Source: Candidatus Nanoarchaeia archaeon
GTDB taxonomy: Bacteria; Patescibacteriota; Microgenomatia; Woykebacterales; RBG-16-39-9b
DNA length: 64,000 nt
Assembly (NCBI GenBank): GCA_036514715.1
Contig: DATBWR010000016.1
Coordinates: 42,368-106,367 of the forward strand
Direction: 5' to 3'
The notes beneath the pieces were generated by a model that saw only the letters and a program-made list of their open reading frames with translations, searched no databases and was not told the origin of the DNA. The translations under genes were made by a program, and so were the position numbers. Shown here in pieces: positions 1 to 23,791 of the stretch (position 1 is its first letter; the number at the start of each line of letters is the position of its first letter).

Positions 1-3
1 GAC

Positions 4-28
4 TAAAGACGCTCAAGCAGCGTCTTTT
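4..28 (+). terminator. Rho-independent terminator of an upstream off-window gene
   Basis: Inverted repeat AAAGACGCT/AGCGTCTTT with a 5-nt loop, followed by a TTTTT run. Confidence 0.6.
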
Positions 29-106
29 TCTAAACCTTCAGACTGCGGCGAAACTATAACCCTATACCCCCAATCTCTCACTCTTTTTGTCCCCGCGGTT
101 CGACCG

Positions 107-3100
107 TTGGAGATTGACAAAAATTCGTCTAAACGTAGCTTGGTCATTACAATCCACGGCTTCAATAGTTCAGCTACTACTGAGTTCCAAGACATGGCAA
201 GGAAAAGCGCAGGAGAGCCCTCCGGTCCCTTCGACTACATAGCCTACGGCTGGAGTCAGTTAGCAAGCAGTCTCTATTCTGGCACTAAGGTTTCACTTGG
301 ACAAGTTCCTCATCTGGAACAAGCTAGTCGCGTTGGTCGCTGTATCGCTTATGATGTTGCTAACAGCCAATACACATACGTTCATGTTATTGGCCACTCT
401 CTTGGCTCAACTGTAGCAGATTCGTTTTCCAAGAAGTTGTCCGAGTTAGTTGGTGGTTACATTACAGTAGCCCTGACTGGGCTGGATGCTTACACCGGGG
501 TAACTCCGGGAAATTTTGGTAGTGCAGCTGCCTTCACAGATCACTATCTGGCAACTGATGACTACCCACTAACTAACTGGACTTTCGCCAACGCCTGCAA
601 CGTGGACGTTACCAGCCTTAAATTTGATGGTTCCTTCACTGGAGGTTCCCACGGCTGGCCGATTCAATTCTACCTTAAAACTCTTGACAGCCCTCTCCAA
701 GTCAATTTTAAGGGTCTTGGCTTTGCTTACCATCGAGAGTACACCGGAATAACTCCGATCTTTAGCAACCGTTGTCCGCAAGGACAGGTAATTAAACTGG
801 AGCCGTGTCTTCTGAACTGCAGTCCTACGCCTGCCCCTACCCCGACTCCGACCCCCACGCCTACCCCAAACCCCACTCCAAGCCCGGGAACTTCTTGCAC
901 CACTCCGGTAGTAACTCAACCAACTGCCGGGGGGAATTATGCTGCCAACGGTTCGCCGGTGACAATCAAATGGAACACCAATTGTCCATCGAGTTATTTT
1001 GAAATCACCGGTGGGCCGTATACGTCCCCACAAACTGCTGGTTGGAGATCTGGTACCCAATATACGTATGCTCAGGGCTTATGGAGCGGGTCTTACAACC
1101 TTAGAGTTAGAGGAAGGGATTCTCAGTTACGTCAAACCAACTGGAGTACAATTGTTCCCTTTACAGTTGGGAGCTCTTCGCCCAATCCAACTCCGACTCC
1201 TCCTCCAACTTCCGGGGCGTCTTGCAGCACTCCTACGATCACCCAACCCAGTTCCAACGGCAATTTCCCTGAAGGTGGGCCGGTCACCATCAAGTGGTCT
1301 ACCAGCTGTCCCTACAGTTACTTCGAAATCACCGGCGGACCCTACACTTCACCGCAAAATGCGGGTTGGATAACGGCAAAGGAATTTACCTATGCCCAAG
1401 GTCTTTGGCCGGGCGCTTACAGCCTGAGAGTACAGGGTAAAGATTATCAGGGTAGGCAAACAGGATGGAGTTCCACAGTCAACTTTGCCGTCGGCAACTT
1501 CGCACCAACGCCCGCCTGCTCCGGCAATGGGTTGATCTACGATAGTACTGGCCGCTGTGCTGGAGTTTCTGACACAAGTTGTCACAGCCTCCCCTCACTC
1601 GGCTTAAACTCTCTTAAATCTGTCACCCTCAACTCCGGCTGGAGCGTAGTAATTTCTTCTAAAACTGACTGTAGTGATGAGATTGGTCGTTACCAACAAA
1701 GCACGACTATTGATACTGGAGTAGCCTCCGGGGCCAAGGCTATTCGTCTGGAAGCAATTCTCCCCAGCGATTGTCCCGAACTTCCACCAACCGGTGGCAT
1801 CCGCGCTTACCGTGAAGGCGGTTTCCGCGAGGGGGGTGGTTGCCGTAACACTACTCTCTCCCAAGGCGGCATTCCTTCTTTTCCAGCAGTTGGCTATCCA
1901 AACGGCCCCTCCTCCATGAAGTTTTTCGGTGACCATATTGACCGGGCCCAAGTCACGGTTTACCCGGGAGAAAATTACACTGGTACACCTTGTGCAACTT
2001 ACACCCAAGACGTTAGCGACTTCTTAAACTGCAACGGCAAAGTTATTTCTATTAAAGTGGATGCCTTCACACCGCCCACCCAGGCGCTAAATATTGCTAG
2101 TGAGGGTCAGTGGGACCTTGATATGTCCGCAGCTTTGGACAACGACCCAACCACCTGGTCGGGGGTTCCCCACGGCGGAAGCGTTGGTGTAGTTTTCCCA
2201 ACTTCACAAAAAATTCTGGGTCTAGTGGTTCACGACCGACCACCCGACTCCGTAAATCCCAACGGCATCAACAAAATTTACGTTAGTTTTGGTGGCGGTG
2301 TAAGCGGAGGCATGATCATCGATAACATCGACCTAGTGGCTTCCGGGCAACGCTGCGCCATAATAGCTCCAACAACTTCGATTGATGCCAGATGGGTTAG
2401 TATAAAGCTAGCTGATAGTAGCGGCGGTAACGGTTTTTCCGATGTGGAAATTTTCGCTGCCGACGGTGGCACTATCCGTCCAACTATTCCTTGTCCTAAA
2501 GTTTACACGGATGATGCCAAACCAGGTGTTTCCGCCCCACCTAGCAACTGGGTGGAACCAATCTCATCAACTTTGAAAACTCCAGCTTGCGATAGCAAAA
2601 CTCTCATGCTCTTTGTTGCAGCTAACGACAGCTTCTCGGACAAATGTCCTTCCAGTGGAGTGATCGGAGCAACAGAGGCTTTACCTTGCGGACCGTCGGT
2701 TCACTTCAATGGTGCACGAACAATTAATTTGACTGATAGTCCGCAATTAAACTCGGGCAAATTGTCAATAAGCATTTGCGCGAAGATTGATGCTTGGGCG
2801 GCCAGCACTTTCCTACGCAGAGAATTGCAAAACGGGGGGACAACAGACCAGTTTATGTTGGGTACGCGCGACGGTAATTTGTCGGCTCACATTTCCTGCT
2901 ACCCTGATATAATTGGCACAAAGCCTATATCTACTGGTTGGCATGTCTTAGGTTTAATCTTCGATGCTCCCAACGGAACTTTATCAACAACGATTGATGG
3001 AGTAATTGTCGACACGGTGACTAATTCTCCGGGAACCAATTGTCCTAGCTGGGATTCCGGCTATGGACCGTTGGTTTTGGGAAACAACCGCGCCAATGCC

Positions 3101-3148
3101 GATTACTTTACCGGGGACATTGCCTGGGTTAAAATCGCTACTCCCTAA
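107..3148 (+). CDS. Large multidomain surface/secreted protein: N-terminal alpha/beta-hydrolase (lipase-like, GHSLG nucleophile elbow), PT-rich linker, two tandem ~100-aa beta-sandwich repeats, discoidin (F5/8 type C)-like domain, C-terminal LamG/concanavalin-like domain
   Basis: 1013-aa ORF with motifs ITIHGF and GHSLGS. The TPTPTPTP linker, the duplicated CTTPVVTQP...FEITGGPYTSPQ modules, the ALDNDPTTWSG...VEIFA discoidin-like stretch and the FTGDIAWVKI LamG-like C-terminus are all visible. The frame is open to the window edge with a TTG start at 107, so the true N-terminus is uncertain and no signal peptide is seen. Confidence 0.75.
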   Translation: MEIDKNSSKRSLVITIHGFNSSATTEFQDMARKSAGEPSGPFDYIAYGWSQLASSLYSGTKVSLGQVPHLEQASRVGRCIAYDVANSQYTYVHVIGHSLGSTVADSFSKKLSELVGGYITVALTGLDAYTGVTPGNFGSAAAFTDHYLATDDYPLTNWTFANACNVDVTSLKFDGSFTGGSHGWPIQFYLKTLDSPLQVNFKGLGFAYHREYTGITPIFSNRCPQGQVIKLEPCLLNCSPTPAPTPTPTPTPTPNPTPSPGTSCTTPVVTQPTAGGNYAANGSPVTIKWNTNCPSSYFEITGGPYTSPQTAGWRSGTQYTYAQGLWSGSYNLRVRGRDSQLRQTNWSTIVPFTVGSSSPNPTPTPPPTSGASCSTPTITQPSSNGNFPEGGPVTIKWSTSCPYSYFEITGGPYTSPQNAGWITAKEFTYAQGLWPGAYSLRVQGKDYQGRQTGWSSTVNFAVGNFAPTPACSGNGLIYDSTGRCAGVSDTSCHSLPSLGLNSLKSVTLNSGWSVVISSKTDCSDEIGRYQQSTTIDTGVASGAKAIRLEAILPSDCPELPPTGGIRAYREGGFREGGGCRNTTLSQGGIPSFPAVGYPNGPSSMKFFGDHIDRAQVTVYPGENYTGTPCATYTQDVSDFLNCNGKVISIKVDAFTPPTQALNIASEGQWDLDMSAALDNDPTTWSGVPHGGSVGVVFPTSQKILGLVVHDRPPDSVNPNGINKIYVSFGGGVSGGMIIDNIDLVASGQRCAIIAPTTSIDARWVSIKLADSSGGNGFSDVEIFAADGGTIRPTIPCPKVYTDDAKPGVSAPPSNWVEPISSTLKTPACDSKTLMLFVAANDSFSDKCPSSGVIGATEALPCGPSVHFNGARTINLTDSPQLNSGKLSISICAKIDAWAASTFLRRELQNGGTTDQFMLGTRDGNLSAHISCYPDIIGTKPISTGWHVLGLIFDAPNGTLSTTIDGVIVDTVTNSPGTNCPSWDSGYGPLVLGNNRANADYFTGDIAWVKIATP
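890..1510 (+). repeat. Two in-frame tandem copies (~300 nt each) of a domain-coding module, preceded by a PT-rich low-complexity linker (820-893)
   Basis: The protein-level repeat TSCTTPVVTQPTAGGNY...FTVGSS aligns with ASCSTPTITQPSSNGNF...FAVGNF. This is coding, not CRISPR. Confidence 0.8.
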
Positions 3149-3209
3149 AACTTTCCATTATTACCCAACAGGACTTGCTAAAGTCTGTTACACTTTAATT
3201 ACTTCTTGA

Positions 3210-3455
3210 TTGGAGGAGAGGTTGCAACCAAATGAGGTACCGTGCGTTCGCTGTGGAGCAACAGCACAGGAGCAGATTATCGCTGTCGTTTTCAAAATCG
3301 AGGACGACGAGGTAGAGGAGATTCCTCCTGCCCTAACTAACGGTTATCACTGCAGGCACTGCAACATTGACTTCCTTTCGCCAGAACAGGAGGCTGAGCT
3401 AGCAGAGAGTCTCGAGATCGAGGCCTATGCGATCATCTACATTGAGGAGGTCTAA
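3210..3455 (+). CDS. Small acidic zinc-ribbon-like protein (CxxC...CxxC); the start is more likely the TTG at 3222, after a GGAGGAG RBS
   Basis: 81-aa ORF with CVRC and CRHC pairs and an acidic composition. A terminator hairpin lies downstream. Confidence 0.45.
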   Translation: MEERLQPNEVPCVRCGATAQEQIIAVVFKIEDDEVEEIPPALTNGYHCRHCNIDFLSPEQEAELAESLEIEAYAIIYIEEV

Positions 3456-3466
3456 CTTACCAACGA

Positions 3467-3501
3467 GCGGTTCGTTCGCAAGAATGAACCGCTTTTCTTT
3501 T
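3467..3501 (+). terminator. Rho-independent terminator
   Basis: GCGGTTC...GAACCGC stem followed by TTTTCTTTT. Confidence 0.6.
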
Positions 3502-3512
3502 AAAATTGAAAT

Positions 3513-3543
3513 AAAAAAGGCAGGGTTAAACGGTGACCCTGCC
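3513..3543 (-). terminator. Rho-independent terminator for the minus-strand gene ending at 3526
   Basis: GGCAGGGT/ACCCTGCC stem overlapping the stop codon, with a T-run (A-run on the plus strand at 3513-3518) downstream on the minus strand. Confidence 0.5.
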
Positions 3544-3819
3544 ATTAGAGGATGGTGCATATGTTCCCTGATTCGGTTTTTCACCCACAATCCGACGCTG
3601 CGCCTCGTCTATCTCACGGCGGGCAAAGACAATTTGGTTGTAAATGTCCCCGCACCAGCTGTCACCCTGGGCTCGTCTGCTTTCCTGAAACTCTTCCCAT
3701 TCGGGGCCTTGCATTTCTGCTTCCAAAGTCTTGACCAACGCTCCCAGTTGACGCAGCTGTTCCAAGGCAACTTGGTGCGACATCCGGTTGAATTCCTTTA
3801 CCGCGACGTCTCCTTGCAT
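3526..3819 (-). CDS. Hypothetical charged/coiled-coil small protein
   Basis: 97-aa ORF with a strong AAGGAGG RBS 7 nt upstream of the ATG and its own terminator. Preferred over the overlapping plus-strand ORF 3427..3852. Confidence 0.55.
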   Translation of the reverse strand: MQGDVAVKEFNRMSHQVALEQLRQLGALVKTLEAEMQGPEWEEFQESRRAQGDSWCGDIYNQIVFARREIDEAQRRIVGEKPNQGTYAPSSNGRVTV

Positions 3820-3883
3820 TCCCTTCCTCCTTTGGGAAAATTATACTGCTAAAACAGGGAAAAGGCAAGTTTGCTTGCTTGGT

Positions 3884-4177
3884 TTAATCTTCGTCTTCGG
3901 CGTCACCAACACCATCAGAGTCAGTATCAGCGCGGTTTGGATCGGTGCGGCGATAATTAAGTTCGCTACGATCATCTAGTCCGTCTCGATCAGTGTCGGC
4001 AGTTAATGGGCTAGTGCCATGACGTAGAACTTCTTCACCGTCAGCAATACCGTCGCGGTCGCTATCTGCATAGTTCGGGTTGGTGCCTTGATAGGCTTCC
4101 TCTGTATCACTCAAACCATCATTATCAGAATCAGTTGTCCTCGGATCTTCAGTCTTTGGATCGTCTTGCATAAGCAT
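3884..4177 (-). CDS. Thrombospondin type 3 repeat-like calcium-binding mini-protein (four DxDxDGxxD repeats)
   Basis: Repeats DSDNDGLSD, DSDRDGIAD, DTDRDGLDD and DTDSDGVGD. There is no signal peptide and the RBS is weak, so it may be a remnant. Confidence 0.45.
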   Translation of the reverse strand: MLMQDDPKTEDPRTTDSDNDGLSDTEEAYQGTNPNYADSDRDGIADGEEVLRHGTSPLTADTDRDGLDDRSELNYRRTDPNRADTDSDGVGDAEDED

Positions 4178-4291
4178 ACCAATCGGAGTCAGTTCAATCG
4201 CTATAGCGTTGCTAATTATTCTTTATTAAAACCTCACGCCCAAAACGTTGATTGTCGTCCGAAAACATCTAAATCCTGGTTATCTTGAAAA

Positions 4292-4942
4292 CTAGGTGGG
4301 TTTTTCCTCGTCAATCTTGTTAATCTGAAAGTTTATATGTGGGTTTACTTTTTTAATCACAATCTCGTAATCGCCTTTATCTCTACACAGTTGAATGGTC
4401 ATTTTAATCTTATCGCTATCTTCCTCTGAACTTATAATTTTGATAAAATGTCCCACAATTTTATCATCTGTATACCCCCACTTCTTATCATCTTCTTCCC
4501 CAGATTTTCTCTCAATCATTATTGTTAGTAATGCGGTTGTCGCTGCTATCACCAAACTCATGGATGCCAGAGCATAGAAAATACCTTTATACGACCCATC
4601 GCTTATTGTAAGTAAGATGAATATAAAGATGACAGTAAACAACAAACCTGCGTTGGCCAACACGTAACCGTATTTACCTTTTATCAAGCCTAGGTCAGCA
4701 CTATTAGGTAGCAGGTGTCTTTGCAAGTAAATAATTAAAACAGCTAATAAGCTTAGGATGGTCGCTACAATTGAATATTTCAAAAAGTCTTCTGTATTAT
4801 TAAAACCAAGAGATGATGAAACTGCTTCGAACCACGTAAGTGCTAGTGGTATAAGTGAGACAGTAAAACCAAAAATATTAACAGTCCATGAGACTGCCTC
4901 GGCGGGTGAACCTTCTTTCAAAATTGTTCTCTTGATCAACAT
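4292..4942 (-). CDS. Hypothetical 4-TM membrane protein with a ~70-aa charged C-terminal domain, co-oriented 15 bp downstream of the RM gene
   Basis: Four hydrophobic helices. Lies in the ~30% GC island and forms an operon-like arrangement with 4958..8035. Confidence 0.6.
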   Translation of the reverse strand: MLIKRTILKEGSPAEAVSWTVNIFGFTVSLIPLALTWFEAVSSSLGFNNTEDFLKYSIVATILSLLAVLIIYLQRHLLPNSADLGLIKGKYGYVLANAGLLFTVIFIFILLTISDGSYKGIFYALASMSLVIAATTALLTIMIERKSGEEDDKKWGYTDDKIVGHFIKIISSEEDSDKIKMTIQLCRDKGDYEIVIKKVNPHINFQINKIDEEKPT

Positions 4943-4957
4943 AAGTAATTCTTAAAT

Positions 4958-7900
4958 TTAGAAATTTGTAGCTTTGTCTATTTCTTTCATTAGCTTTTCT
5001 GTCTCTGTTAGTGCGACTACTATCTTTTGGTAATGTTCAATATCTTCATTAGTTAAAACTCTGCCCTTGCGGTCTTTGAGCCATTTTTGCGCTGGTTGGT
5101 AACCACCGATATAGAAATTCCAAGCAATTTCAGGAACTTTGCCAAAATATTGCTCTGCATTGATAAATACTTTATCATCCTTATATATTACTTTGTCGAA
5201 AATATCTGATCCGGTTACCGGATAAGTAGTAACGAATTTATTTACCTTGGGAGATTCAAGTAAGTGCAGTGAACGTAACTCAGTACCAAAAGCAACAAGT
5301 TTTTTGAAACTTTTGACGTCCTTGGGATATGGCACACGCGGAAAATCAATTTTCAGGAATTCTTTGTATTTCTCTCGATAACTTGGCGAGTGCAAAACTG
5401 CGTAAATATAATCAAATATGTCTTCTGGTGAAACTTTGCCAACAATTTTTTCTATTTCATCAATAATTTCTTTTTTGAGATTTGCTTCTCGTGTACCATC
5501 TTCTGAATAATTATAAATTGGGAATAGATTATAAGGAGCAAAGGGTTGCGAACTCATGTCTGTAATAGAATTTGTCATATAGGAAGTAAAATGTTTTCCT
5601 GCTGCATACTGCTTACAAGCAATTATTGCATAGTTACTTCTATACATACTCGACATAACTTTTTTACTTGCTCCTCCTCTACCAATTTCTATTAAATTGG
5701 GCTGATACCATATCCATCTATAGTCGAACGGTCTGTACATGTAAACATACTCACGATAATCTTTGTCATTGTTATTTAACAGTTTTCCTTTTTCCCTTTC
5801 AGTATTCCAATACTTCCCATCCTTAATTTCCAGCTTTCTTTGAATTTCGCTTATACTGGTTTCTTTTCTTAAAACGTCTAGTTTATCTAACAGCTTCTTT
5901 TTTTCGAAATTAGTCAATAATTTATCATTATTAGTTTTTACACCATTACCATTTACAATAAAAATTTCTTTTAACGACGGAAAACTTTCATATTCCTTAG
6001 ACGAGCTGAAATTTTTAGGAACAAAGAAATAATAAGGCGATGAATAATTCAGCTTTTCCCATTTAACTTCTCTCATATCATTTTTGTTTAGTGCGTTGAA
6101 TTTATCTGCTTGCTTTCCATAAAGATCTGAGTGATATACCTCACCCAAACCTTTCTTTTCACTTTCTTTACGGAGAAAAATATTTATGGAGACACCTTGT
6201 TGGATATCAAAAACATTTTTATCTTCACCACCATCAGGGGCTTTTTCTTGAATGTTGGAATTACCATGTAGATCCAATATATAAATTTCATCGAAAGTTT
6301 CAAGTAGATGCTTTCTCATCTGGCGGTGAATAACCCCACTTATAAATGAGTTATTAGTAATCATTGCTACAATCCCACTTCCATTTTTCTCAACAAAATG
6401 TTCTGCGAAACGGATGAATTTTATATAATCATCTGAGAGGGGTTGAATATTTCTTTCATTGAGATTTGTTTTGTAATCCTTGGTGAGATTCTGTATCCAC
6501 TCACCTTTATTGGAGGAACTCACACTGTACGGCGGATTTCCGATAACTACCATAATTGGTTTTTCATTTTTTATTTTCGATGCTTCTTTTGCTTCCTCTG
6601 CGATACTTTCAGCAAAACCAAATGAAAACAGATCTTGTTGGGCTGGGCTTTCTTCGAGAGAATTGGTGAGATAAATTCCAAGTCGTTGGTTGAAATATTT
6701 AAAACCAGTTTCTCTAAAGGCCATGCTCAACTTCAAGTGGGCTATTGTATACGGTGTCATCATTAGCTCAAAACCATGCAGTCGTGGAAGCAAGTCGTTA
6801 TGAACATAGGTTGGCCAACGACCTTTTTGCCCACCTTTAAGTAAATGTGTATAGATAACACGAATAACCGCGCTAATAAAAGTACCTGTTCCAGCAGCTG
6901 GGTCAAGAATTTGAACTTTGTGTAGGTTAGAAGCTGTCTTTGACGTGTCTGCCAAACCTGTGGCAAGACCAAACTCTTTCTTGAGTAGGAAATCGACTGA
7001 ACGCACTATAAAATTTACAACAGGAAGAGGAGTATAGTAGGCTCCCATCTTTTTGCGGAGGTTTGGGTCGTATTCCTTCAAAAAATCTTCATAAAAATGT
7101 ATAACGGGATCTGGGCCCTTTTGAGTTTTACCACTTGATTCTTTTTTAAAATACTCTTCCATAAGGGCGGCGACATCAGCATGAGAGAAAACTTCACACA
7201 ATTCATTGACGATATATTCAAGTCTTTTGTCGAAGTCAGGCCCAACTATATGATCGAAAAAATGTCTGAGAAGCGGATTCGATTTTGGGATTAAGTCACG
7301 AGCTTCCTGCCTAGAAAAGTCTTTTTCCGTATCATCATGATAGCGAGCAATGAAAAGTCCATAAACGAGAGTTTGTGCGTACATATCAGCGAAAGAGTCT
7401 TTCGTTAAATCATGAACAAGAAGTTTTTTAATTGTTTCGTAGACCCGAACAAGCTCAGTATTTTTATCTGATTCGGTAGCAAGGAATTGCTTTACGTTGT
7501 CTCGAATTCTTTGAGCTTTACCTCCCATAATCTTTGCTAGATGCTGACCAGACCGTATAGGTTCTTTTTGTGATTGGGTAAAATCAAGAAGAGTTTTAGT
7601 GAGAAACTCAAAGTTTTCTGGGAAAGGTTTAGTTGTTCGACTTTTAAGGTCGTAATCGCCTATTTTTATTGGTTCTCCATAGTGAATACCGTTTCTATAA
7701 AAGCGAAACTCCAGATAGTCTGTAAGAACAAGGTTGGTATAGCCAAAATACCTAGTCATCTGCTCAGATTTTTCGACCTTATCTAGAGAGACACCAATAT
7801 CTTTTGCCTCAATATACAAAATGGGTATATCGCCTTTGAGGACAACGAAATCAGGTTTGTTACCTTGCACAGCCCGAGCATCATGAAATATGTGCAGACC

Positions 7901-8035
7901 GCCAACTGATTCAAAAACATTTTTAAGTAGAGCCTCAAGATCGGCACGGTAGCCCATCTCGCTGGTTTCTGGGTGAGAGAATTTTGTGGCGGTTGACTGA
8001 ATATAATTTTCTAAAATACCTTGCACATTATTCAT
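4958..8035 (-). CDS. Type IIL/IIG single-chain restriction-modification enzyme (MmeI family): N-terminal PD-(D/E)xK nuclease plus gamma-class N6-adenine methyltransferase plus C-terminal TRD
   Basis: 1025 aa. Motifs PDFVVLKGDIPILYIEAKD (D...EAK nuclease motif), GAYYTP, ILDPAAGTGTF (motif I) and VIGNPPY (motif IV). AT-rich composition. Confidence 0.85.
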   Translation of the reverse strand: MNNVQGILENYIQSTATKFSHPETSEMGYRADLEALLKNVFESVGGLHIFHDARAVQGNKPDFVVLKGDIPILYIEAKDIGVSLDKVEKSEQMTRYFGYTNLVLTDYLEFRFYRNGIHYGEPIKIGDYDLKSRTTKPFPENFEFLTKTLLDFTQSQKEPIRSGQHLAKIMGGKAQRIRDNVKQFLATESDKNTELVRVYETIKKLLVHDLTKDSFADMYAQTLVYGLFIARYHDDTEKDFSRQEARDLIPKSNPLLRHFFDHIVGPDFDKRLEYIVNELCEVFSHADVAALMEEYFKKESSGKTQKGPDPVIHFYEDFLKEYDPNLRKKMGAYYTPLPVVNFIVRSVDFLLKKEFGLATGLADTSKTASNLHKVQILDPAAGTGTFISAVIRVIYTHLLKGGQKGRWPTYVHNDLLPRLHGFELMMTPYTIAHLKLSMAFRETGFKYFNQRLGIYLTNSLEESPAQQDLFSFGFAESIAEEAKEASKIKNEKPIMVVIGNPPYSVSSSNKGEWIQNLTKDYKTNLNERNIQPLSDDYIKFIRFAEHFVEKNGSGIVAMITNNSFISGVIHRQMRKHLLETFDEIYILDLHGNSNIQEKAPDGGEDKNVFDIQQGVSINIFLRKESEKKGLGEVYHSDLYGKQADKFNALNKNDMREVKWEKLNYSSPYYFFVPKNFSSSKEYESFPSLKEIFIVNGNGVKTNNDKLLTNFEKKKLLDKLDVLRKETSISEIQRKLEIKDGKYWNTEREKGKLLNNNDKDYREYVYMYRPFDYRWIWYQPNLIEIGRGGASKKVMSSMYRSNYAIIACKQYAAGKHFTSYMTNSITDMSSQPFAPYNLFPIYNYSEDGTREANLKKEIIDEIEKIVGKVSPEDIFDYIYAVLHSPSYREKYKEFLKIDFPRVPYPKDVKSFKKLVAFGTELRSLHLLESPKVNKFVTTYPVTGSDIFDKVIYKDDKVFINAEQYFGKVPEIAWNFYIGGYQPAQKWLKDRKGRVLTNEDIEHYQKIVVALTETEKLMKEIDKATNF

Positions 8036-8120
8036 AAAGTACTACCGTTTAAGCAGAATTTTGCTCGTACAGTATACCTGATTAGAGGCTGGAAGGGAAG
8101 GTTTCTACGGGACAAACTAG

Positions 8121-9887
8121 TCAGATTTTCAAAACCGAGAGGAAAGCTTCTTGGGGTATTTGAACGCGGCCGAATTGCTTCAAGCGCTTTTTCCCCTTCT
8201 TTTGCTTATCCAAAAGCTTGTTTTTACGGGTAACATCGCCGCCGTAAAGTTTAGCAGTTACATCTTTGCGAAACGCCGGAACATCAGCGCGGGCAATAAT
8301 TTTTCCGCCGACCGCAGCTTGCACGGAAATTTCAAAATTCTGGCGGGGAAGGACCTCTTTTAATTTCTCTACTAATTTACGACCAACTTCGTCGGCTTTC
8401 TTGCGAACAACAATTTGGGAAAGTGCGTCCACAATCTCTTTGGCTACTAAAATTTCCATACGAACTGCGTCCACTTCTTGCCAGCCGGAAAGTTCGTAAT
8501 CAAAAGAAGCATACCCTGATGAGATTGATTTGAGTCGATCGTAAAAATCGCTTATTACTTCGGCTAAGGGTAGGGTAAACTCAATCAAAACTTGATCAGC
8601 CGCGTATTTGACATCGGTGACTACTGCTCGACGGTTATTTAATAATTCTAAAATCGCTCCTAAATAACTCTCTTTAGTAACAATTAAAGCGTTGATGATC
8701 GGTTCATGGATAGTTTTAATTTTGGTGGGTTCCGGAAATTTAGTCGGATTGGATATTTCCACTTCTTCGTCATTAGTCAAGGTAATTTTGTAGTTGACGG
8801 TTGGTGTACTGGCTACTAAATCTAGGCCGTACTCTCTTTCCAATCTTTCCTGAACAACTTCGAAATGCAAGAGTCCCAAAAACCCGCAACGAAAACCAAA
8901 CCCCAAAGCTGTGGAACTATCTGCTTCAAAAGTAAGAGAAGCGTCGTTAAGTTTCAGTTTTTCCAGACCATCTTTCAAAGCTGGGAAACGATCGTTATCT
9001 ACAGGGTAAAAACCGGCAAAAACCATCGGACGTACCTGGCGGTAGCCGGGTAAAGGTTCTTTGCTAGGATTGGCGGCCAAGGTAATTGTGTCACCAACAC
9101 GAACTTGGCTAACGTCTTTTAGTCCGGTTGCCAAATAACCAATTTCCCCAGCCTCCAGCTTTTCTTCAGACTTTAGTTCTGGTTTAAAACAACCCACTTC
9201 CACCAAACTTGCGCTAGCTTTAGTACCAATAAACTTCACTTGATCGCGCTCTTTGAAAGACCCGTTAAACACTCGAACATAGGCAATCACTCCTTTGAAG
9301 GGGTCGTAGGTGGAATCAAAAATCAACGCTCGTGAGTTTTCCTCATTAGTAAGCGGGGCGGGAACTTTCTCGATGATTTTAGAGAGGAGTTCTTTTACAC
9401 CTTGTCCAGTTTTCGCTGAAATCTTCAAGATGTCGGTCTCTTTCACACCAAAGACTTTGATTATTTCAAGAGCGACTTTTTCCACTTGCGCAGCTGGCAA
9501 ATCAATTTTATTAATCACGGGAATAATTTTCAAATTTTGCTTCTGGGCTAAGTAATAATTACTTAGAGTTTGAGCCTGTATTCCTTGAGTAGCATCCACC
9601 AGTAAAACTACCCCTTCGACAGCAGCCAAAGAGCGGCTCACCTCGTAGCTAAAATCAACATGGCCGGGTGTGTCAATTAAATTAAGAGTGCAACCTCGCC
9701 AATTCATGCGAACTGGCTGCAACTTGATAGTAATACCCCGCTCCCGCTCAATGTCGAGCTGGTCTAAAAGCTGTTCCTTCATTTTGTTTTGCGGGACAGT
9801 ACCAGTTAGCTCGAGCATCCTGTCAGCAAGGGTAGACTTACCGTGGTCAATGTGGGCGGCAATCGCAAAATTTCGGATTGTTAACAT
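8121..9887 (-). CDS. lepA: Elongation factor 4 (LepA)
   Basis: AHIDHGKSTL G-domain and the typical LepA length and C-terminus. Confidence 0.95.
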   Translation of the reverse strand: MLTIRNFAIAAHIDHGKSTLADRMLELTGTVPQNKMKEQLLDQLDIERERGITIKLQPVRMNWRGCTLNLIDTPGHVDFSYEVSRSLAAVEGVVLLVDATQGIQAQTLSNYYLAQKQNLKIIPVINKIDLPAAQVEKVALEIIKVFGVKETDILKISAKTGQGVKELLSKIIEKVPAPLTNEENSRALIFDSTYDPFKGVIAYVRVFNGSFKERDQVKFIGTKASASLVEVGCFKPELKSEEKLEAGEIGYLATGLKDVSQVRVGDTITLAANPSKEPLPGYRQVRPMVFAGFYPVDNDRFPALKDGLEKLKLNDASLTFEADSSTALGFGFRCGFLGLLHFEVVQERLEREYGLDLVASTPTVNYKITLTNDEEVEISNPTKFPEPTKIKTIHEPIINALIVTKESYLGAILELLNNRRAVVTDVKYAADQVLIEFTLPLAEVISDFYDRLKSISSGYASFDYELSGWQEVDAVRMEILVAKEIVDALSQIVVRKKADEVGRKLVEKLKEVLPRQNFEISVQAAVGGKIIARADVPAFRKDVTAKLYGGDVTRKNKLLDKQKKGKKRLKQFGRVQIPQEAFLSVLKI

Positions 9888-9889
9888 TT

Positions 9890-11581
9890 TTAGGGTCGGG
9901 GGTCAGTGTGGGTGGTATCAACAGTTTCTTCAAAATTAAGAATTTTAGTAACTTTACGCAAATCCGGAAGCATTTTTATAAAAGTTTTCAGCTCTTCTGA
10001 TTTAAACCACCAGGTCAAAAAAACATAAAGGGCAAGCCCCGATGTAGCCACTCCCGCTGTCAGAAAGAGTAGATTAAGCGCTTTTCTGGTGTCAATTATG
10101 TAGTCGATAATAAATTCGCCGTTGACTCGAAAGTGTAGTGGAACGTAAAGAAAAACCGCCATTATTAGGGCTGGGACAACGATTTTAACAGCTGGATAAA
10201 ACAATGCTTTTCGGTTGAAGCCTCCTACCTTACGATCCAGAAGAAAGAGCAAGGTGAAAAAACTGAAAGCGCCGGAAATTGAAGTTGTCAGACCTAAATA
10301 AGCCACTGGTATTGGGGCGTTTTTTGCTAAAACGAAGACAAAATAATAACCGACTGCTCCATGCACTAGCAAGCTCACTATCGCCACCTTTAGAGGGGTA
10401 ATTGTGTCGTGCATGGCATAAAAAGCGCGGGTTACCAAGAGAAATCCGGCTTGAGCAAAAACACCCAGTGCAAACCAGGACAAGGTCGTGGCAGTAGCGA
10501 CTGTAGCTGGCCAATCAAACAACCCACTTCCAACTGCCAAACGCACTACTGGTATACGTAAGACCGCTAAAAGCACGCTCAACGGTACAGCTAAATAAAG
10601 CAGCTGCCAGAGAGAAGCTAAAAAAGTCTTTTTAAAGTCCTCCGCCTTACCGCCTGCCCACTCTGCTGATAAGGTGGGTAGCGAGGCAGCGGCAATCGTC
10701 AGTCCAAACAAACCAATGGGTAAATTCTGAAGGTCAGAGGCAAATTTCAAGACCGCAATTGAGCCCACTGCCAAACTGGAAGCCAAAATAACATTAATTA
10801 CAATTTCCAACTGCCCAACTCCAACCCCCAAAGCTCGTGGTAGTGATAGTTTCAAGATTTTTAAAACATCCGGATCTTTCAATTTAAACGCTGGTCGGTA
10901 GTTAAACCCAAGTTTATTAAGCGCAAAAAATTGCACACTCAGGTGAAAGAGGGCACCAATTACCACCCCTAACCCTACTCCCAAGATACCAAAGGACCGG
11001 CTTAAAACCACAATTCCAAAGATAATCCCCAGGTTGTAAACCACCGGTGCTACCGCGGCGATCAGAAAACGACGGTAACTTTGCAAAACTGAAGTGAAGA
11101 AACTACCAATTACTAAGAACAGCTCTCCAAAGACAATAATCCGCATTAAATCTGCCGCCTGCTGATCGAAAGGTGGATCAAGCCTCAAACCTAGAAAATT
11201 GTTTATTTGCAAGGGGAATAAAAAGATGACTACTCCAACAACAAAGTAGGCCGTTAAGCTTAAGTTTAGAATAGTTGAAGCTAAGATTTCGGATTCTTTA
11301 GTTTTCTTGCCTTGAATATAAGCGGTAAAAATCGGGATGAAGGCGACTGAAAGAGCTCCAGTGATCAAAACATTAGCTAGTAGATCCGGGATGACAAAGG
11401 CAGTATTAAAAGCATCCAGTGTTCCGGAAGCTCCAAAGTAACGGGCTAAAAACCAGTTGCGCCACAATCCTAAAAAGCGGCTGGCCAGCACCAAAACCAT
11501 CATTATCAGCGCGGCCGAAAGGATTGAGGTTTGCTGTCTAAATAGTAGGGAACTGCTTTCGCGGAGAAATTTATTAACCAT
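9890..11581 (-). CDS. murJ: Lipid II flippase MurJ (MviN)
   Basis: 563-aa polytopic membrane protein with a MurJ-like N-terminal region. Confidence 0.8.
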   Translation of the reverse strand: MVNKFLRESSSLLFRQQTSILSAALIMMVLVLASRFLGLWRNWFLARYFGASGTLDAFNTAFVIPDLLANVLITGALSVAFIPIFTAYIQGKKTKESEILASTILNLSLTAYFVVGVVIFLFPLQINNFLGLRLDPPFDQQAADLMRIIVFGELFLVIGSFFTSVLQSYRRFLIAAVAPVVYNLGIIFGIVVLSRSFGILGVGLGVVIGALFHLSVQFFALNKLGFNYRPAFKLKDPDVLKILKLSLPRALGVGVGQLEIVINVILASSLAVGSIAVLKFASDLQNLPIGLFGLTIAAASLPTLSAEWAGGKAEDFKKTFLASLWQLLYLAVPLSVLLAVLRIPVVRLAVGSGLFDWPATVATATTLSWFALGVFAQAGFLLVTRAFYAMHDTITPLKVAIVSLLVHGAVGYYFVFVLAKNAPIPVAYLGLTTSISGAFSFFTLLFLLDRKVGGFNRKALFYPAVKIVVPALIMAVFLYVPLHFRVNGEFIIDYIIDTRKALNLLFLTAGVATSGLALYVFLTWWFKSEELKTFIKMLPDLRKVTKILNFEETVDTTHTDPRP

Positions 11582-21586: not shown

Positions 21587-21620
21587 AGCTACTGTCCCAA
21601 TTGTCTTGAACCTATAGTTG

Positions 21621-21649
21621 TTGACTTTTCCTAAATTTAGTGCTATAAT
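21621..21649 (+). promoter_or_regulatory. Near-consensus sigma70 promoter (TTGACT-17-TATAAT) driving the GC-rich island gene
   Basis: TTGACT at 21621-21626, 17-nt spacer, TATAAT at 21644-21649. An AAGGAGG RBS at 21663-21669 and a GTG at 21678 follow. Confidence 0.6.
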
Positions 21650-21677
21650 TTTCGCCAAAAGTAAGGAGGGAGAAACG

Positions 21678-22676
21678 GTGGTCGTGTCAAACTCAGAAGA
21701 GGGCCTTCTTGATCGAATCGTTAGGATCGCTTTTGAGGAAACGGCGCCGGAAATCCACGCTTTAGTGGTCCACCGTTTCCCCGATGACGATGCATGGCTC
21801 AGCACCTGGATAGCCAGGAAGTTCATTCCCAGGGCAGCCAACGCCCAACTCGTTTTCGTGAGGTCGGGGGAAAAACTGCCTGGAACCGAAGATGATCCGC
21901 ATGTGCTCCACTTCGATACCGGAGGGGGCGAATACGACCAGCACAACAGGAGCCTGGAAAAAACCTGCAGTGCTGTTCTTCTGGCCAACAGGTTAGGGGT
22001 TCAGAATGACCCAGGTCTAACCGAGCTACTCAAGATGGCGACCGATGTGGACAACGTCAGGAAGCTGCCTCCGACCAGCATTCACTACGCTATCGAAGGC
22101 TACGCCCGGCTCTTCCAAAAGGAAAACGAAGTTGCCTGGGAAAAGGTTCAGGAGCGGGTGTTTGAGCTCTTCAACATTGTCTACGGACAAGAAGCCCAAC
22201 GAGCTCGAGGAAAAAACGATCTAGAGAAATTCGGGCGGTGGACACAGCACCCTAACGGTGCCAAGGTTTGCTTTCTTCCCTATCACCCAAACACTCGCGA
22301 AGCTGCTTTCGCAGCGGGAGCAACTGTGGTGATTTGGACTGAAGCTTGCAAAGCGCCTTTCAGGGGTCGGGTCCAGATCGGTATTCAACGTAGCCGTGAC
22401 CACGAGTACCTCAAACTGAGGAGTGTGGCCTGGTCGCTGCGGAAAGCTGAGGCCTTGCAACGCACCCTTCAGCTGGGTGAGCAAGAGCTGGGGGCGGTGG
22501 GAGAAGATTCCAACACTCATTGGTTCCTACACGACAGCTTGGGCTTTGTTTGCAACGGCAGCCGCACTCACCCGCTGGAGAGAGAAGAAGAGTTTAGTTT
22601 GCTCAGTCTGAATCAGGTTCTAAATCTGGTAAACCGCGAGGTAGCTTCAATGTCGCTTGCTCCTGCAGGCAGATAA
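21678..22676 (+). CDS. Divergent DHH-superfamily phosphoesterase-like protein (NrnA-like motif HRFPDDDAWLS...YDQH); GC-elevated foreign-looking gene
   Basis: Start assigned to the GTG 8 nt after the AAGGAGG RBS; the ORF track extends it to a TTG at 21618. Motif II resembles the NrnA H-x-x-PDxDAxGS motif. Rough hand counts give 53-58% GC. Confidence 0.35.
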   Translation: MVVSNSEEGLLDRIVRIAFEETAPEIHALVVHRFPDDDAWLSTWIARKFIPRAANAQLVFVRSGEKLPGTEDDPHVLHFDTGGGEYDQHNRSLEKTCSAVLLANRLGVQNDPGLTELLKMATDVDNVRKLPPTSIHYAIEGYARLFQKENEVAWEKVQERVFELFNIVYGQEAQRARGKNDLEKFGRWTQHPNGAKVCFLPYHPNTREAAFAAGATVVIWTEACKAPFRGRVQIGIQRSRDHEYLKLRSVAWSLRKAEALQRTLQLGEQELGAVGEDSNTHWFLHDSLGFVCNGSRTHPLEREEEFSLLSLNQVLNLVNREVASMSLAPAGR

Positions 22677-22761
22677 GGAGGCTTCGGTCAGAGGAGTGAA
22701 AATCCACAAGATTTTCGCCCCTTCTTTATTTTCAAATTCTTCCCTCTCTTAAATTAAAAGC

Positions 22762-22790
22762 AAAAAATCCATCTCTTTTTGAGATGGAAA
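22762..22790. terminator. Bidirectional hairpin terminator between convergent island genes
   Basis: AAAAAAT CCATCTC TTTTT GAGATGG AAAG. Confidence 0.5.
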
Positions 22791-22903
22791 GTGTTGGGAA
22801 GGTTTTTTGCAACCAGACTCGTTTTCGAGTACTTCCCCTGATTCTTATTCTATTTTTGGAGTTCCTTGCGTCAGTAATGTTCGCCGATCACCCTCTGTCC
22901 TTT

Positions 22904-23791
22904 CTAGCTGTAGCGACCGGGCCCGCGGTTGCTCTTCCTGCTATTGCGCGGTGCCCCTCGCTTCTCGATCCTCTTTTTGCTTCGCGGAGTTGGTTCCGAC
23001 GGAACGTACTCGACTACCTGATGGTCTGCGAGAAGCCGCACCATTTCCTCAGCCGCACCATCAAGCGGGTCTGACGCTGCAGATTGGTGACCGTCGCAGG
23101 TAACCTGACCGTTAGCAACGGACAAGCCACCACGGTGAGGTGTGCCCCGAACAGGACAGCAGTAGTGTCCTTGGCAAACCACACCGCCTTCCACCACCCT
23201 TAGGTTCCCCCAGTGCTTCTCTGGTGAGTTCACTACGAGGCAGGATGGAGCGGGTGTGTTTGCGGGGTTATGACCCTCGCAGTGCCACCTACCGTTCACC
23301 TTCACGAGCTTCGCACCAGAGTGAGGCGTGCCGTTCTGAACCACACAGCGAACGCTTGTGGTCACCCGAGCCTTGACTCCGGAAACGATGCCGCTCTGTG
23401 GATCCGAGGCTTTTTTGGTTGCCTTGAACCCTTTTCGGCAGCGGTCGCAATACGGATTTTCACCTTCGGCGACTGGCTTCGTCACGCGCTCACACGTAGC
23501 GAAGTTGGTACAGTCGACATAACCCCTACTTCTGAGCTTCTGCACATAGCAGGAACCGCAGTAAGGGTCTAACCCTGTCCGTAGTTTCGTCAAGCGTTTG
23601 CACTTGGCGTAGTTGACACACTCAACGTACCCCTGCTTCCTCAGCTCCTCTTCGAAGCATGGTTGGCAAAGGGGACCGTTGGGATCGGCGGGGTTCTTGC
23701 CGCACTTGGAGCACATCTTTTCGCTTGGAGTCTCGGCTGAGACAGCCTCGCTCACCTTGGTTGTTTTTGCGCTTGACTTATGTGCTGCCAC
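22904..23791 (-). CDS. Cysteine-rich protein with internal repeats (3x CxxC...GYV[ED]C.N[YF]A.C and 2x GTPHxG...NG...C[ED]GH) and a basic C-terminal tail; function unknown
   Basis: 295 aa. GTG start with an AAGGAGGG RBS. GC-elevated. The repeats are visible in the translation. Confidence 0.6.
   Translation of the reverse strand: MAAHKSSAKTTKVSEAVSAETPSEKMCSKCGKNPADPNGPLCQPCFEEELRKQGYVECVNYAKCKRLTKLRTGLDPYCGSCYVQKLRSRGYVDCTNFATCERVTKPVAEGENPYCDRCRKGFKATKKASDPQSGIVSGVKARVTTSVRCVVQNGTPHSGAKLVKVNGRWHCEGHNPANTPAPSCLVVNSPEKHWGNLRVVEGGVVCQGHYCCPVRGTPHRGGLSVANGQVTCDGHQSAASDPLDGAAEEMVRLLADHQVVEYVPSEPTPRSKKRIEKRGAPRNSRKSNRGPGRYS

Follow-up and report, generated by a model that had tools for sequence, protein, structure and literature searches.

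We describe here a pair of genes at positions 4292-8035 of a 64,000-nucleotide stretch of contig DATBWR010000016.1 (assembly GCA_036514715.1), the whole of which is referred to as the window in the following. The minus strand carries two open reading frames (ORFs) in tandem, directly downstream of murJ and lepA, which are located on the same strand. The first ORF encodes a restriction-modification (RM) enzyme of 1025 amino acids (aa), in which a predicted nuclease, a methyltransferase (MTase) and a target recognition domain (TRD) are joined in a single chain. The second ORF starts after a gap of only 15 bp and encodes a protein of 216 aa with four predicted transmembrane (TM) segments. The features of the locus are compiled in Table 1.

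Table 1. Features of the RM locus and its surroundings; positions are those of the window, GC stands for guanine-plus-cytosine content
Feature	Position	Strand	Basis or remark
murJ	9890-11581	-	
lepA	8121-9887	-	
lepA-RM intergenic region, upstream edge of the low-GC block	8036-8120	-	GC 42.4%
Putative -10 hexamer TATACT	8071-8076	-	conjectural; promoter scan gave no flag
Single-chain type IIL/IIG RM enzyme, DrdV-like, 1025 aa	4958-8035	-	ORF, PADLOC, Pfam, PDB sequence matches, Foldseek
Predicted N-terminal PD-(D/E)xK nuclease domain, ~residues 1-135	7631-8035	-	catalytic P61-D62...E76-A-K78 at 7802-7855
Helical connector, ~residues 136-310, no ATPase/helicase	7106-7630	-	predicted all-helical
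N6-adenine MTase domain	6236-7105	-	Pfam N6_Mtase and Eco57I; motifs
TRD (Type_ISP_C, residues 690-1018)	4982-5968	-	Pfam PF18135, 1.9e-79
Variable TRD core, residues ~651-850, most AT-rich part of the gene	5486-6085	-	drop in identity
AT-rich spacer of 15 bp between RM and membrane genes	4943-4957	-	GC 13%
ORFan membrane protein, 216 aa	4292-4942	-	ORF, hydropathy
TM1	4820-4888	-	residues ~19-41; strongly hydrophobic
TM2	4715-4780	-	residues ~55-76; strongly hydrophobic
TM3	4604-4672	-	residues ~91-113; strongly hydrophobic
TM4	4511-4585	-	residues ~120-144; strongly hydrophobic
Charged C-terminal tail, 72 residues	4295-4510	-	16 acidic and 13 basic in the last 71 residues
AT-rich spacer closing the low-GC block, with a weak hairpin at 4275-4296	4178-4291	.	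GC 37.7%
TSP3-repeat protein, 97 aa	3884-4177	-	
Second 97-aa ORF	3526-3819	-	
81-aa ORF	3210-3455	+	
Laminin_G_3 protein, 1013 aa	107-3148	+	

A single-chain restriction-modification enzyme of the DrdV type

The RM gene is intact, and the elements named for it in the original prediction, i.e., an N-terminal D...EAK nuclease signature, GAYYTP, DPAAGTGTF, NPPY and a C-terminal TRD, are all read in that order. GAYYTP comprises residues 331-336 (7028-7045), motif I (DPAAGTGTF) residues 378-386 (6878-6904) and motif IV (NPPY) residues 500-503 (6527-6538), with motif I fitting the gamma-class pattern xPxxGxGxF. Residues D62, E76 and K78 of the putative nuclease center and those of NPPY are invariant among 36 aligned homologues and the same holds for the key residues of GAYYTP and DPAAGTGTF. 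In addition to the very strong Type_ISP_C match of the TRD, Pfam recognizes N6_Mtase (1.4e-14) and Eco57I (7.5e-11), and PADLOC assigns the protein to REase_MTase_IIG with 1.5e-273. The nuclease region gives a weak HSDR_N match on residues 50-115 (4.6e-4, under the cut-off of that family) and a match to PHROG 4225, annotated as 'endonuclease', on residues 56-113 (5.4e-5). No helicase, ResIII, SNF2 or other ATPase domain was matched in the Pfam search of the enzyme, and the helical stretch formed by residues 136-310 is too short for a translocase domain.

Among the proteins in the PDB, those most similar to the single sequence are LlaBIII (5e-48), DrdV (2.5e-47) and LlaGI (9e-37), all of which cover MTase and TRD, and a profile search yielded DrdV and LlaBIII with 5.7e-67 each. 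An AlphaFold2 (AF2) model was calculated from the 36-sequence alignment; its predicted local distance difference test (pLDDT) score is 63.8 overall and lies below 50 in the nuclease domain over residues 66-122. When this model was submitted to Foldseek, DrdV (7lo5) was the top match and aligned over the whole length, followed by LlaBIII and LlaGI, with BREX PglX and CamA far behind. The N-terminal 322 residues are without a sequence match in the PDB.

DrdV from Deinococcus radiodurans (PDB 7LO5, 7LVV) has been described as a type IIL enzyme of 1029 residues, in which an N-terminal nuclease is followed by a helical connector, an MTase and a C-terminal TRD (bioRxiv 10.1101/2021.01.06.425610). 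The enzyme from the window resembles it in length, in the order of the domains and in the lack of an ATPase, and MTase and TRD can be aligned over residues 282-920 (profile) or 313-925 (single sequence) of the window enzyme. Differences exist nevertheless, as identity amounts to merely ~19-20% in the structural alignment and the TRD core of DrdV is too unrelated to that of the window enzyme for its recognition site, CATGNAC, to be transferred. Because the protein shares length and layout with DrdV and lacks an ATPase, we assign it to the DrdV-like type IIL/IIG enzymes. Judged from its sequence and fold matches, it is complete, stands alone and falls into the DrdV lineage of the type IIL (type IIG) enzymes, being an ordinary addition to an already known family.

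Two other names have been attached to this protein. NCBI lists it as 'type ISP restriction/modification enzyme', which would imply an ATP-dependent, translocating enzyme, while the original prediction placed it in the MmeI family. The former name finds support in the TRD, which belongs to Type_ISP_C, and in LlaBIII being the best single-sequence match in the PDB. LlaBIII and LlaGI (PDB 4XQK, 5FFJ) are Type ISP enzymes, and their MTase and TRD halves are homologous to those of the window enzyme. Type_ISP_C is, however, also the TRD of DrdV, and it does not separate DrdV-like from Type ISP enzymes. Moreover, LlaBIII and LlaGI differ from the window enzyme by a RecA-like ATPase of their own and a coupler, both inserted between nuclease and MTase, and in their case translocation and collision precede cleavage. 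They comprise 1406-1578 aa compared to 1025 aa in our case, the difference to LlaBIII (1578 aa) amounting to ~550 residues, and the alignment with LlaBIII begins only past the ATPase of the latter, at chain residue 752-800. As an ATPase is absent, the 'type ISP' name is wrong on the grounds of domain content. MmeI and BpuSI are likewise composed of nuclease, MTase and TRD in a single chain and modify one strand, and they share the type of motifs I and IV. Their TRD, however, is from a different family. The Pfam model MmeI_Mtase scores 30.4 bits on the window enzyme, slightly above its cut-off of 27 bits, and is outscored by N6_Mtase and Eco57I. MmeI_N, MmeI_hel, MmeI_TRD and MmeI_C found no Pfam match in the enzyme and neither MmeI nor BpuSI appeared among the sequence and fold matches from the PDB. 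The proposed 'MmeI-like type IIL' enzyme is thus kept at the level of the class, type IIL, and given up at the level of the family, where DrdV, LlaBIII and LlaGI are the nearest solved structures. Membership in either the Type ISP or the MmeI group is very improbable. The Borrelia proteins BBE02 and BBQ67 were considered as characterized relatives and dismissed, as BBE02 aligns at the MTase motifs alone and the matches of 34% identity on Borrelia plasmids are other proteins.

The enzyme belongs to a large family with at least 8000 homologues at E-values below 1e-10, hundreds of which match it in length and share 65-70% identity with it. They occur in bacteria of the candidate phyla radiation (CPR), Ignavibacteria, Proteobacteria and other groups and also on plasmids. 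Identity to the homologues is 70-85% along the protein and falls to 25-44% over residues 651-850, as one would expect if this TRD core determines specificity. The RM allele P0003, which comes from a different sample and is 93% identical overall, matches the window enzyme completely over residues ~160-900, the TRD core included, and apart from three isolated exceptions all of the 79 differences fall into residues 1-160 and 900-1025. This mosaic suggests recombination among alleles at both ends of the gene.

The membrane protein is an ORFan

A four-TM protein with a small charged cytosolic domain had been postulated 15 bp after the RM gene on the same strand, and ORF and hydropathy analyses agree with this description. 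Basic residues are found at the N-terminus and in the loop between TM2 and TM3, from which a topology with both termini inside the cell and a cytoplasmic tail is predicted.

No relatives of this protein came to light. A word-index search of 5.8 billion clusters and an HMMER scan across all 1.84 billion representatives returned the protein itself and one fragment only. Homologues were absent from viral contigs (IMG/VR) as well as from plasmids and phages, the latter two searched by tblastn. A tblastn search of 80 loci containing RM relatives of 51-68% identity gave no significant match (best E = 1.2), and the Pfam-less proteins encoded downstream of the RM gene in relatives were not matched by phmmer --max. 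Likewise, no family in Pfam, PADLOC, NCBIfam or PHROG exceeded its threshold. By the outcome of these searches the protein is a lineage-specific ORFan.

An ORF without relatives may not be a gene at all and could represent a chance frame in foreign AT-rich DNA or a decayed remnant. Such a view can draw on the failure to find a homologue in 1.84 billion representatives, on the single-sequence AF2 model, which is unusable with a pLDDT of 51.5, and on a 705-nt contig in which the ORF is interrupted at window position 4426 by a junction to unrelated DNA. A Shine-Dalgarno sequence is missing, too, which is uninformative because most genes of this genome are devoid of one. On the other hand, shuffling the region 500 times gave longest stop-free runs of 95 codons on average and 163 at most, compared to the 216 codons of the ORF, and it would be difficult to reconcile a random frame with four hydrophobic segments of 20-25 residues and basic residues on the predicted inner loops. 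Base composition by codon position speaks against a chance frame as well, with purines prevailing at the first codon position and T at the second, just as in murJ, such that the ORF looks coding. Furthermore, the membrane gene is identical in 14 contigs that stem from several samples and represent one near-clonal population, and the order murJ-lepA-RM-membrane-TSP3 is kept throughout. Samples in which this population occurs are of the Rifle groundwater type, with ERZ27254864 and JGI 3300025167 as examples. We therefore judge the ORF to be a real gene and consider the opposite quite unlikely.

Two contigs feature deviating arrangements around the membrane gene. In the 705-nt contig mentioned above (L082), positions 1-359 consist of unrelated DNA with a gene for tRNA-Gly(tcc), which is joined to the 3' terminal 46 codons of the membrane gene and the TSP3 flank; the junction creates a 76-aa ORF with a different N-terminus. 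An exact search for the unique part of this contig in JGI metagenomes yielded 0 matches. A Rifle scaffold of 1598 nt (L088) carries an identical membrane gene, preceded by an in-frame ORF at positions 1-558 in which a small methyltransferase domain of the MTS type is fused to the C-terminal ~80 residues of a Type_ISP_C domain that has diverged. Compared with window positions 5099-5209, this scaffold has 24 mismatches, 17 of them at third codon positions, and is 100% identical from there on. Both junctions may be assembly chimeras or real variants.

An AT-rich islet directly downstream of lepA

RM and membrane genes share an anomalous base composition. GC content over 4292-8035 is 36.1% compared to 43.4% for the window, which makes this the lowest 3.7-kb stretch of the window, ~3 standard deviations (sd) under the mean. 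With GC fractions of 0.362 (RM) and 0.363 (membrane), the two genes rank lowest among the 53 ORFs that span at least 100 aa (mean 0.433, sd 0.036). Hydrophobic coding does not account for the low GC content of the 216-aa ORF, because murJ, which also encodes a polytopic membrane protein, has 43.7%. The edges of the block are sharp, with 42% GC in the lepA-RM spacer on one side and a recovery at ~4180 on the other.

The AT-rich island of the original prediction is thus real, although the value of ~30% GC given for it applies exclusively to 5500-6250, i.e., the variable TRD core (30.8%; 30.9% over 5500-6000). The TSP3-repeat gene and the two small convergent genes, which had been included in the low-GC stretch, are located outside of the block in DNA of above-average GC content (48.6% for TSP3, 51-53% for the convergent genes). 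Together with the gene for the Laminin_G_3 protein they form a GC-rich block of ~50% at positions 1-4000. A further block of this kind (53-57.5%) is present at 21618-23791 and contains two ORFs, of 352 and 295 aa, that match no Pfam family.

A similar though weaker trend is apparent in other genomes. In 63 RM relatives, the GC content of the RM gene is on average 2.6 points under that of the flanks and the 700 bp following the RM gene are 3.2 points under. Neither repeats nor tRNA genes were found as marks of integration at the edges of the islet. In a LepA scan of metagenome contigs aimed at an empty site, the best LepA relative was merely 59% identical and a close genome free of the islet was not among the hits. 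Altogether, the two genes probably form an AT-rich, compositionally foreign islet (~4180-8035) directly downstream of lepA that was acquired horizontally.

A scan in and around the 15-bp spacer detected no separate promoter or terminator, and RNA structure was not significant in this region. RM and membrane genes are likely co-transcribed, and as a pair they are unchanged in the 14 contigs from several samples. The hairpin at 4275-4296, beyond the membrane gene, is terminator-like on the plus strand only, and its fold z-score is not significant.

The gene following the RM gene in relatives

The original prediction regarded a co-operonic membrane partner as unusual for this type of enzyme. We examined 71 loci of RM relatives and used all other adjacent gene pairs in these loci (527) as baseline. 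The next gene resides on the same strand in 63/71 cases (baseline 369/527, p = 6e-4) and follows within 25 bp in 28/71 (39%), the latter figure not differing significantly from the baseline of 163/527 (31%, p = 0.17). A co-directional and often closely spaced follower is consequently common. Tight coupling to the upstream gene is rarer, with 5/65 within 25 bp compared to the same 163/527 (p = 3e-5). On the basis of these spacing and strand counts, the RM gene usually begins a co-directional unit.

What follows the RM gene varies greatly. The 49 same-strand ORFs located just downstream in relatives are mutually unrelated except for two homologous pairs. Many of the 28 genes within 25 bp encode defence-related or mobile-element-like proteins, namely SIR2/AbiH, ORF6N, KAP NTPase, AAA_13, a GajB-like UvrD helicase, PIF1, an OLD-type ATPase-TOPRIM protein, DUF3800, DUF6414, SocA_Panacea, DUF2726, HSDR_N_2 and RNase_H_2 with a Cas4-like domain. 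Housekeeping functions are represented by YchF and an alpha/beta hydrolase, and 12 of the 28 proteins are Pfam-less, six of them with predicted TM segments. Including those in two further loci (L069, L072), ~8/28 of the tightly following genes encode a predicted TM protein. TM proteins make up 20-30% of typical proteomes. An enrichment of membrane proteins in the downstream position, which we had considered, is therefore not apparent. The RM family rather appears as a mobile single-gene module of defence islands with a hypervariable next gene and no fixed partner, and the window, with an ORFan in that slot, fits this picture.

One arrangement with a membrane protein recurs in relatives. In locus L080 (8937-10527), the DrdV-like RM gene is followed by an overlapping two-gene cassette for a three-TM protein of 192 aa and a Pfam-less protein of ~330 aa. 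Loci L176 and L177 feature the same order of RM and membrane genes, with the third gene cut at the contig end. The same cassette is also present in locus L178 (247-1799), where it precedes a ResIII/SNF2 helicase gene and a DrdV-like gene is lacking; the two proteins are 34% and 37% identical between L080 and L178. As it also occurs beside the ResIII helicase without a DrdV-like gene, the cassette is, by its gene neighborhoods, an independent module and not an RM subunit. It may constitute an uncharacterized defence-island module.

Passenger or partner?

We favor an interpretation, to which we assign a probability of about 75%, in which the islet consists of an intact DrdV-type RM enzyme and a passenger ORFan membrane gene with no conserved partnership between the two. 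By analogy with DrdV, the enzyme would bind an asymmetric site of ~6-7 bp and protect the host by methylating one adenine on one strand. Cleavage would take place a short, constant distance away from the site and would require that several unmethylated sites come together. RM and membrane genes probably came in on one DNA fragment, and transcription probably continues from the former into the latter. The membrane gene would occupy, as a passenger, the hypervariable downstream slot which the RM family carries in most genomes and would not be a conserved or required partner.

Several points weigh against this interpretation. The boundaries of the islet are drawn from composition, since no close genome without it was found. 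The nuclease fold is not confirmed, given the low confidence of the model over residues 66-122 and the missing PDB match for the N-terminal part, and activity, recognition site and cleavage distance are predictions from the DrdV precedent. Common low GC content and tight spacing are equally expected of a functional two-gene operon. In addition, an ORFan is not amenable to a test by co-occurrence, so that a lack of evidence for a link does not prove the two genes independent in this case. Finally, the excess of co-directional genes downstream of the RM gene in relatives and the many defence genes among them leave room for a cooperation of the RM enzyme with the product of the next gene.

It is thus conceivable that the membrane protein serves as an RM accessory, either as a pore or effector of the abortive infection (Abi) type that is freed when the RM enzyme is inhibited or as an anchor at the site of DNA entry. 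The 15-bp gap on the same strand without an intervening terminator and the shared anomalous GC content would agree with such a role, as would the observation that the RM gene of relatives usually heads a co-directional unit whose followers often are defence or Abi genes (SIR2/AbiH, AAA_13, OLD-like, KAP). A precedent exists in EcoprrI-PrrC. Here, a latent anticodon nuclease is embedded in a type Ic RM locus, and this suicide effector is tied genetically and physically to the RM system; it is the sole well-studied case of that kind (PMC1484252, PMC3458546), and prrC genes are invariably found in linkage with RM loci (PMC3458546). This system provides the model for the idea of an Abi partner. 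One of the RM relatives (L013) indeed has a gene for a 788-aa ATPase of the AAA_13 family 6 bp downstream, a family that we take to include PrrC and RloC. PrrC, however, is a conserved, soluble ABC-ATPase/RNase, while the protein encoded in the window is a four-TM ORFan that belongs to no family. A recurrent linkage to RM genes, as is typical of prrC, was not found for it in the 80 loci of RM relatives.

The pairing of RM and membrane genes, whose absence from other genomes had been named as a ground for refutation, was found in this near-clonal population only, and the membrane protein is without any homologue with which it could recur next to an RM gene. The missing assignments in PADLOC, PHROG and Pfam and the unremarkable share of TM proteins among the tight followers likewise speak against an accessory. 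The in vitro work on DrdV is described for a single polypeptide and a partner protein is not mentioned in the accessible part of the report. With neither a homologue nor co-occurrence, the effector idea is without positive evidence. Of the two possibilities raised in the original prediction, an abortive-infection effector and an unrelated passenger, the latter fits better, and we consider an accessory role improbable. Still somewhat less likely is a more far-reaching scenario, in which the ORFan, restricted to its lineage, cooperates with the type IIL enzyme as a membrane effector or anchor and, for example, kills the cell or blocks the entry of DNA when restriction fails. More generally, DrdV-like RM enzymes would then act as the fixed 'sensor' head of two-gene units, in which downstream effectors such as SIR2, OLD-like or KAP ATPases and small membrane proteins are freely swapped.

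With an intact DrdV-type RM gene and a passenger ORFan as the preferred reading, the locus is a routine case: an uncultivated bacterium with one more gene of this kind, placed in a small defence islet and accompanied by a hitch-hiking orphan gene. Two labels are corrected, as the enzyme is neither 'MmeI-like' nor 'type ISP'. Beyond that, the downstream slot of the RM family, being hypervariable and often defence-related, is a reasonable place to hunt for new defence genes, and the locus is a clean candidate for asking if type IIL enzymes ever use a membrane partner, which would be new if true.

Flanking genes and host

The protein encoded directly downstream of the membrane gene consists nearly entirely of bacterial TSP3 (calcium-binding) repeats, and neither a signal peptide nor an anchor is visible in its 97 residues. 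On two contigs that are nucleotide-identical to the window in this part (L083, L084), it has been called with 95 aa, starting 6 bp further in. Given this identity, the difference reflects the choice of start codon and not a sequence variant. The second 97-aa ORF is convergent with the 81-aa ORF and the gene for the Laminin_G_3 protein. A strong hairpin with a 13-bp stem and a T-run is located at 3465-3494 between the two small convergent genes and is likely a bidirectional terminator.

In the public record, the source organism is named 'Candidatus Nanoarchaeia archaeon'. Yet, murJ and lepA (window 8121-11581) as well as hrcA-grpE-dnaK and genes for LytR_cpsA_psr and DNA polymerase III delta (L083, 1-20651) are present. 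As all of these are bacterial genes, the genome looks bacterial and CPR-like by its gene content, and the archaeal label appears doubtful.

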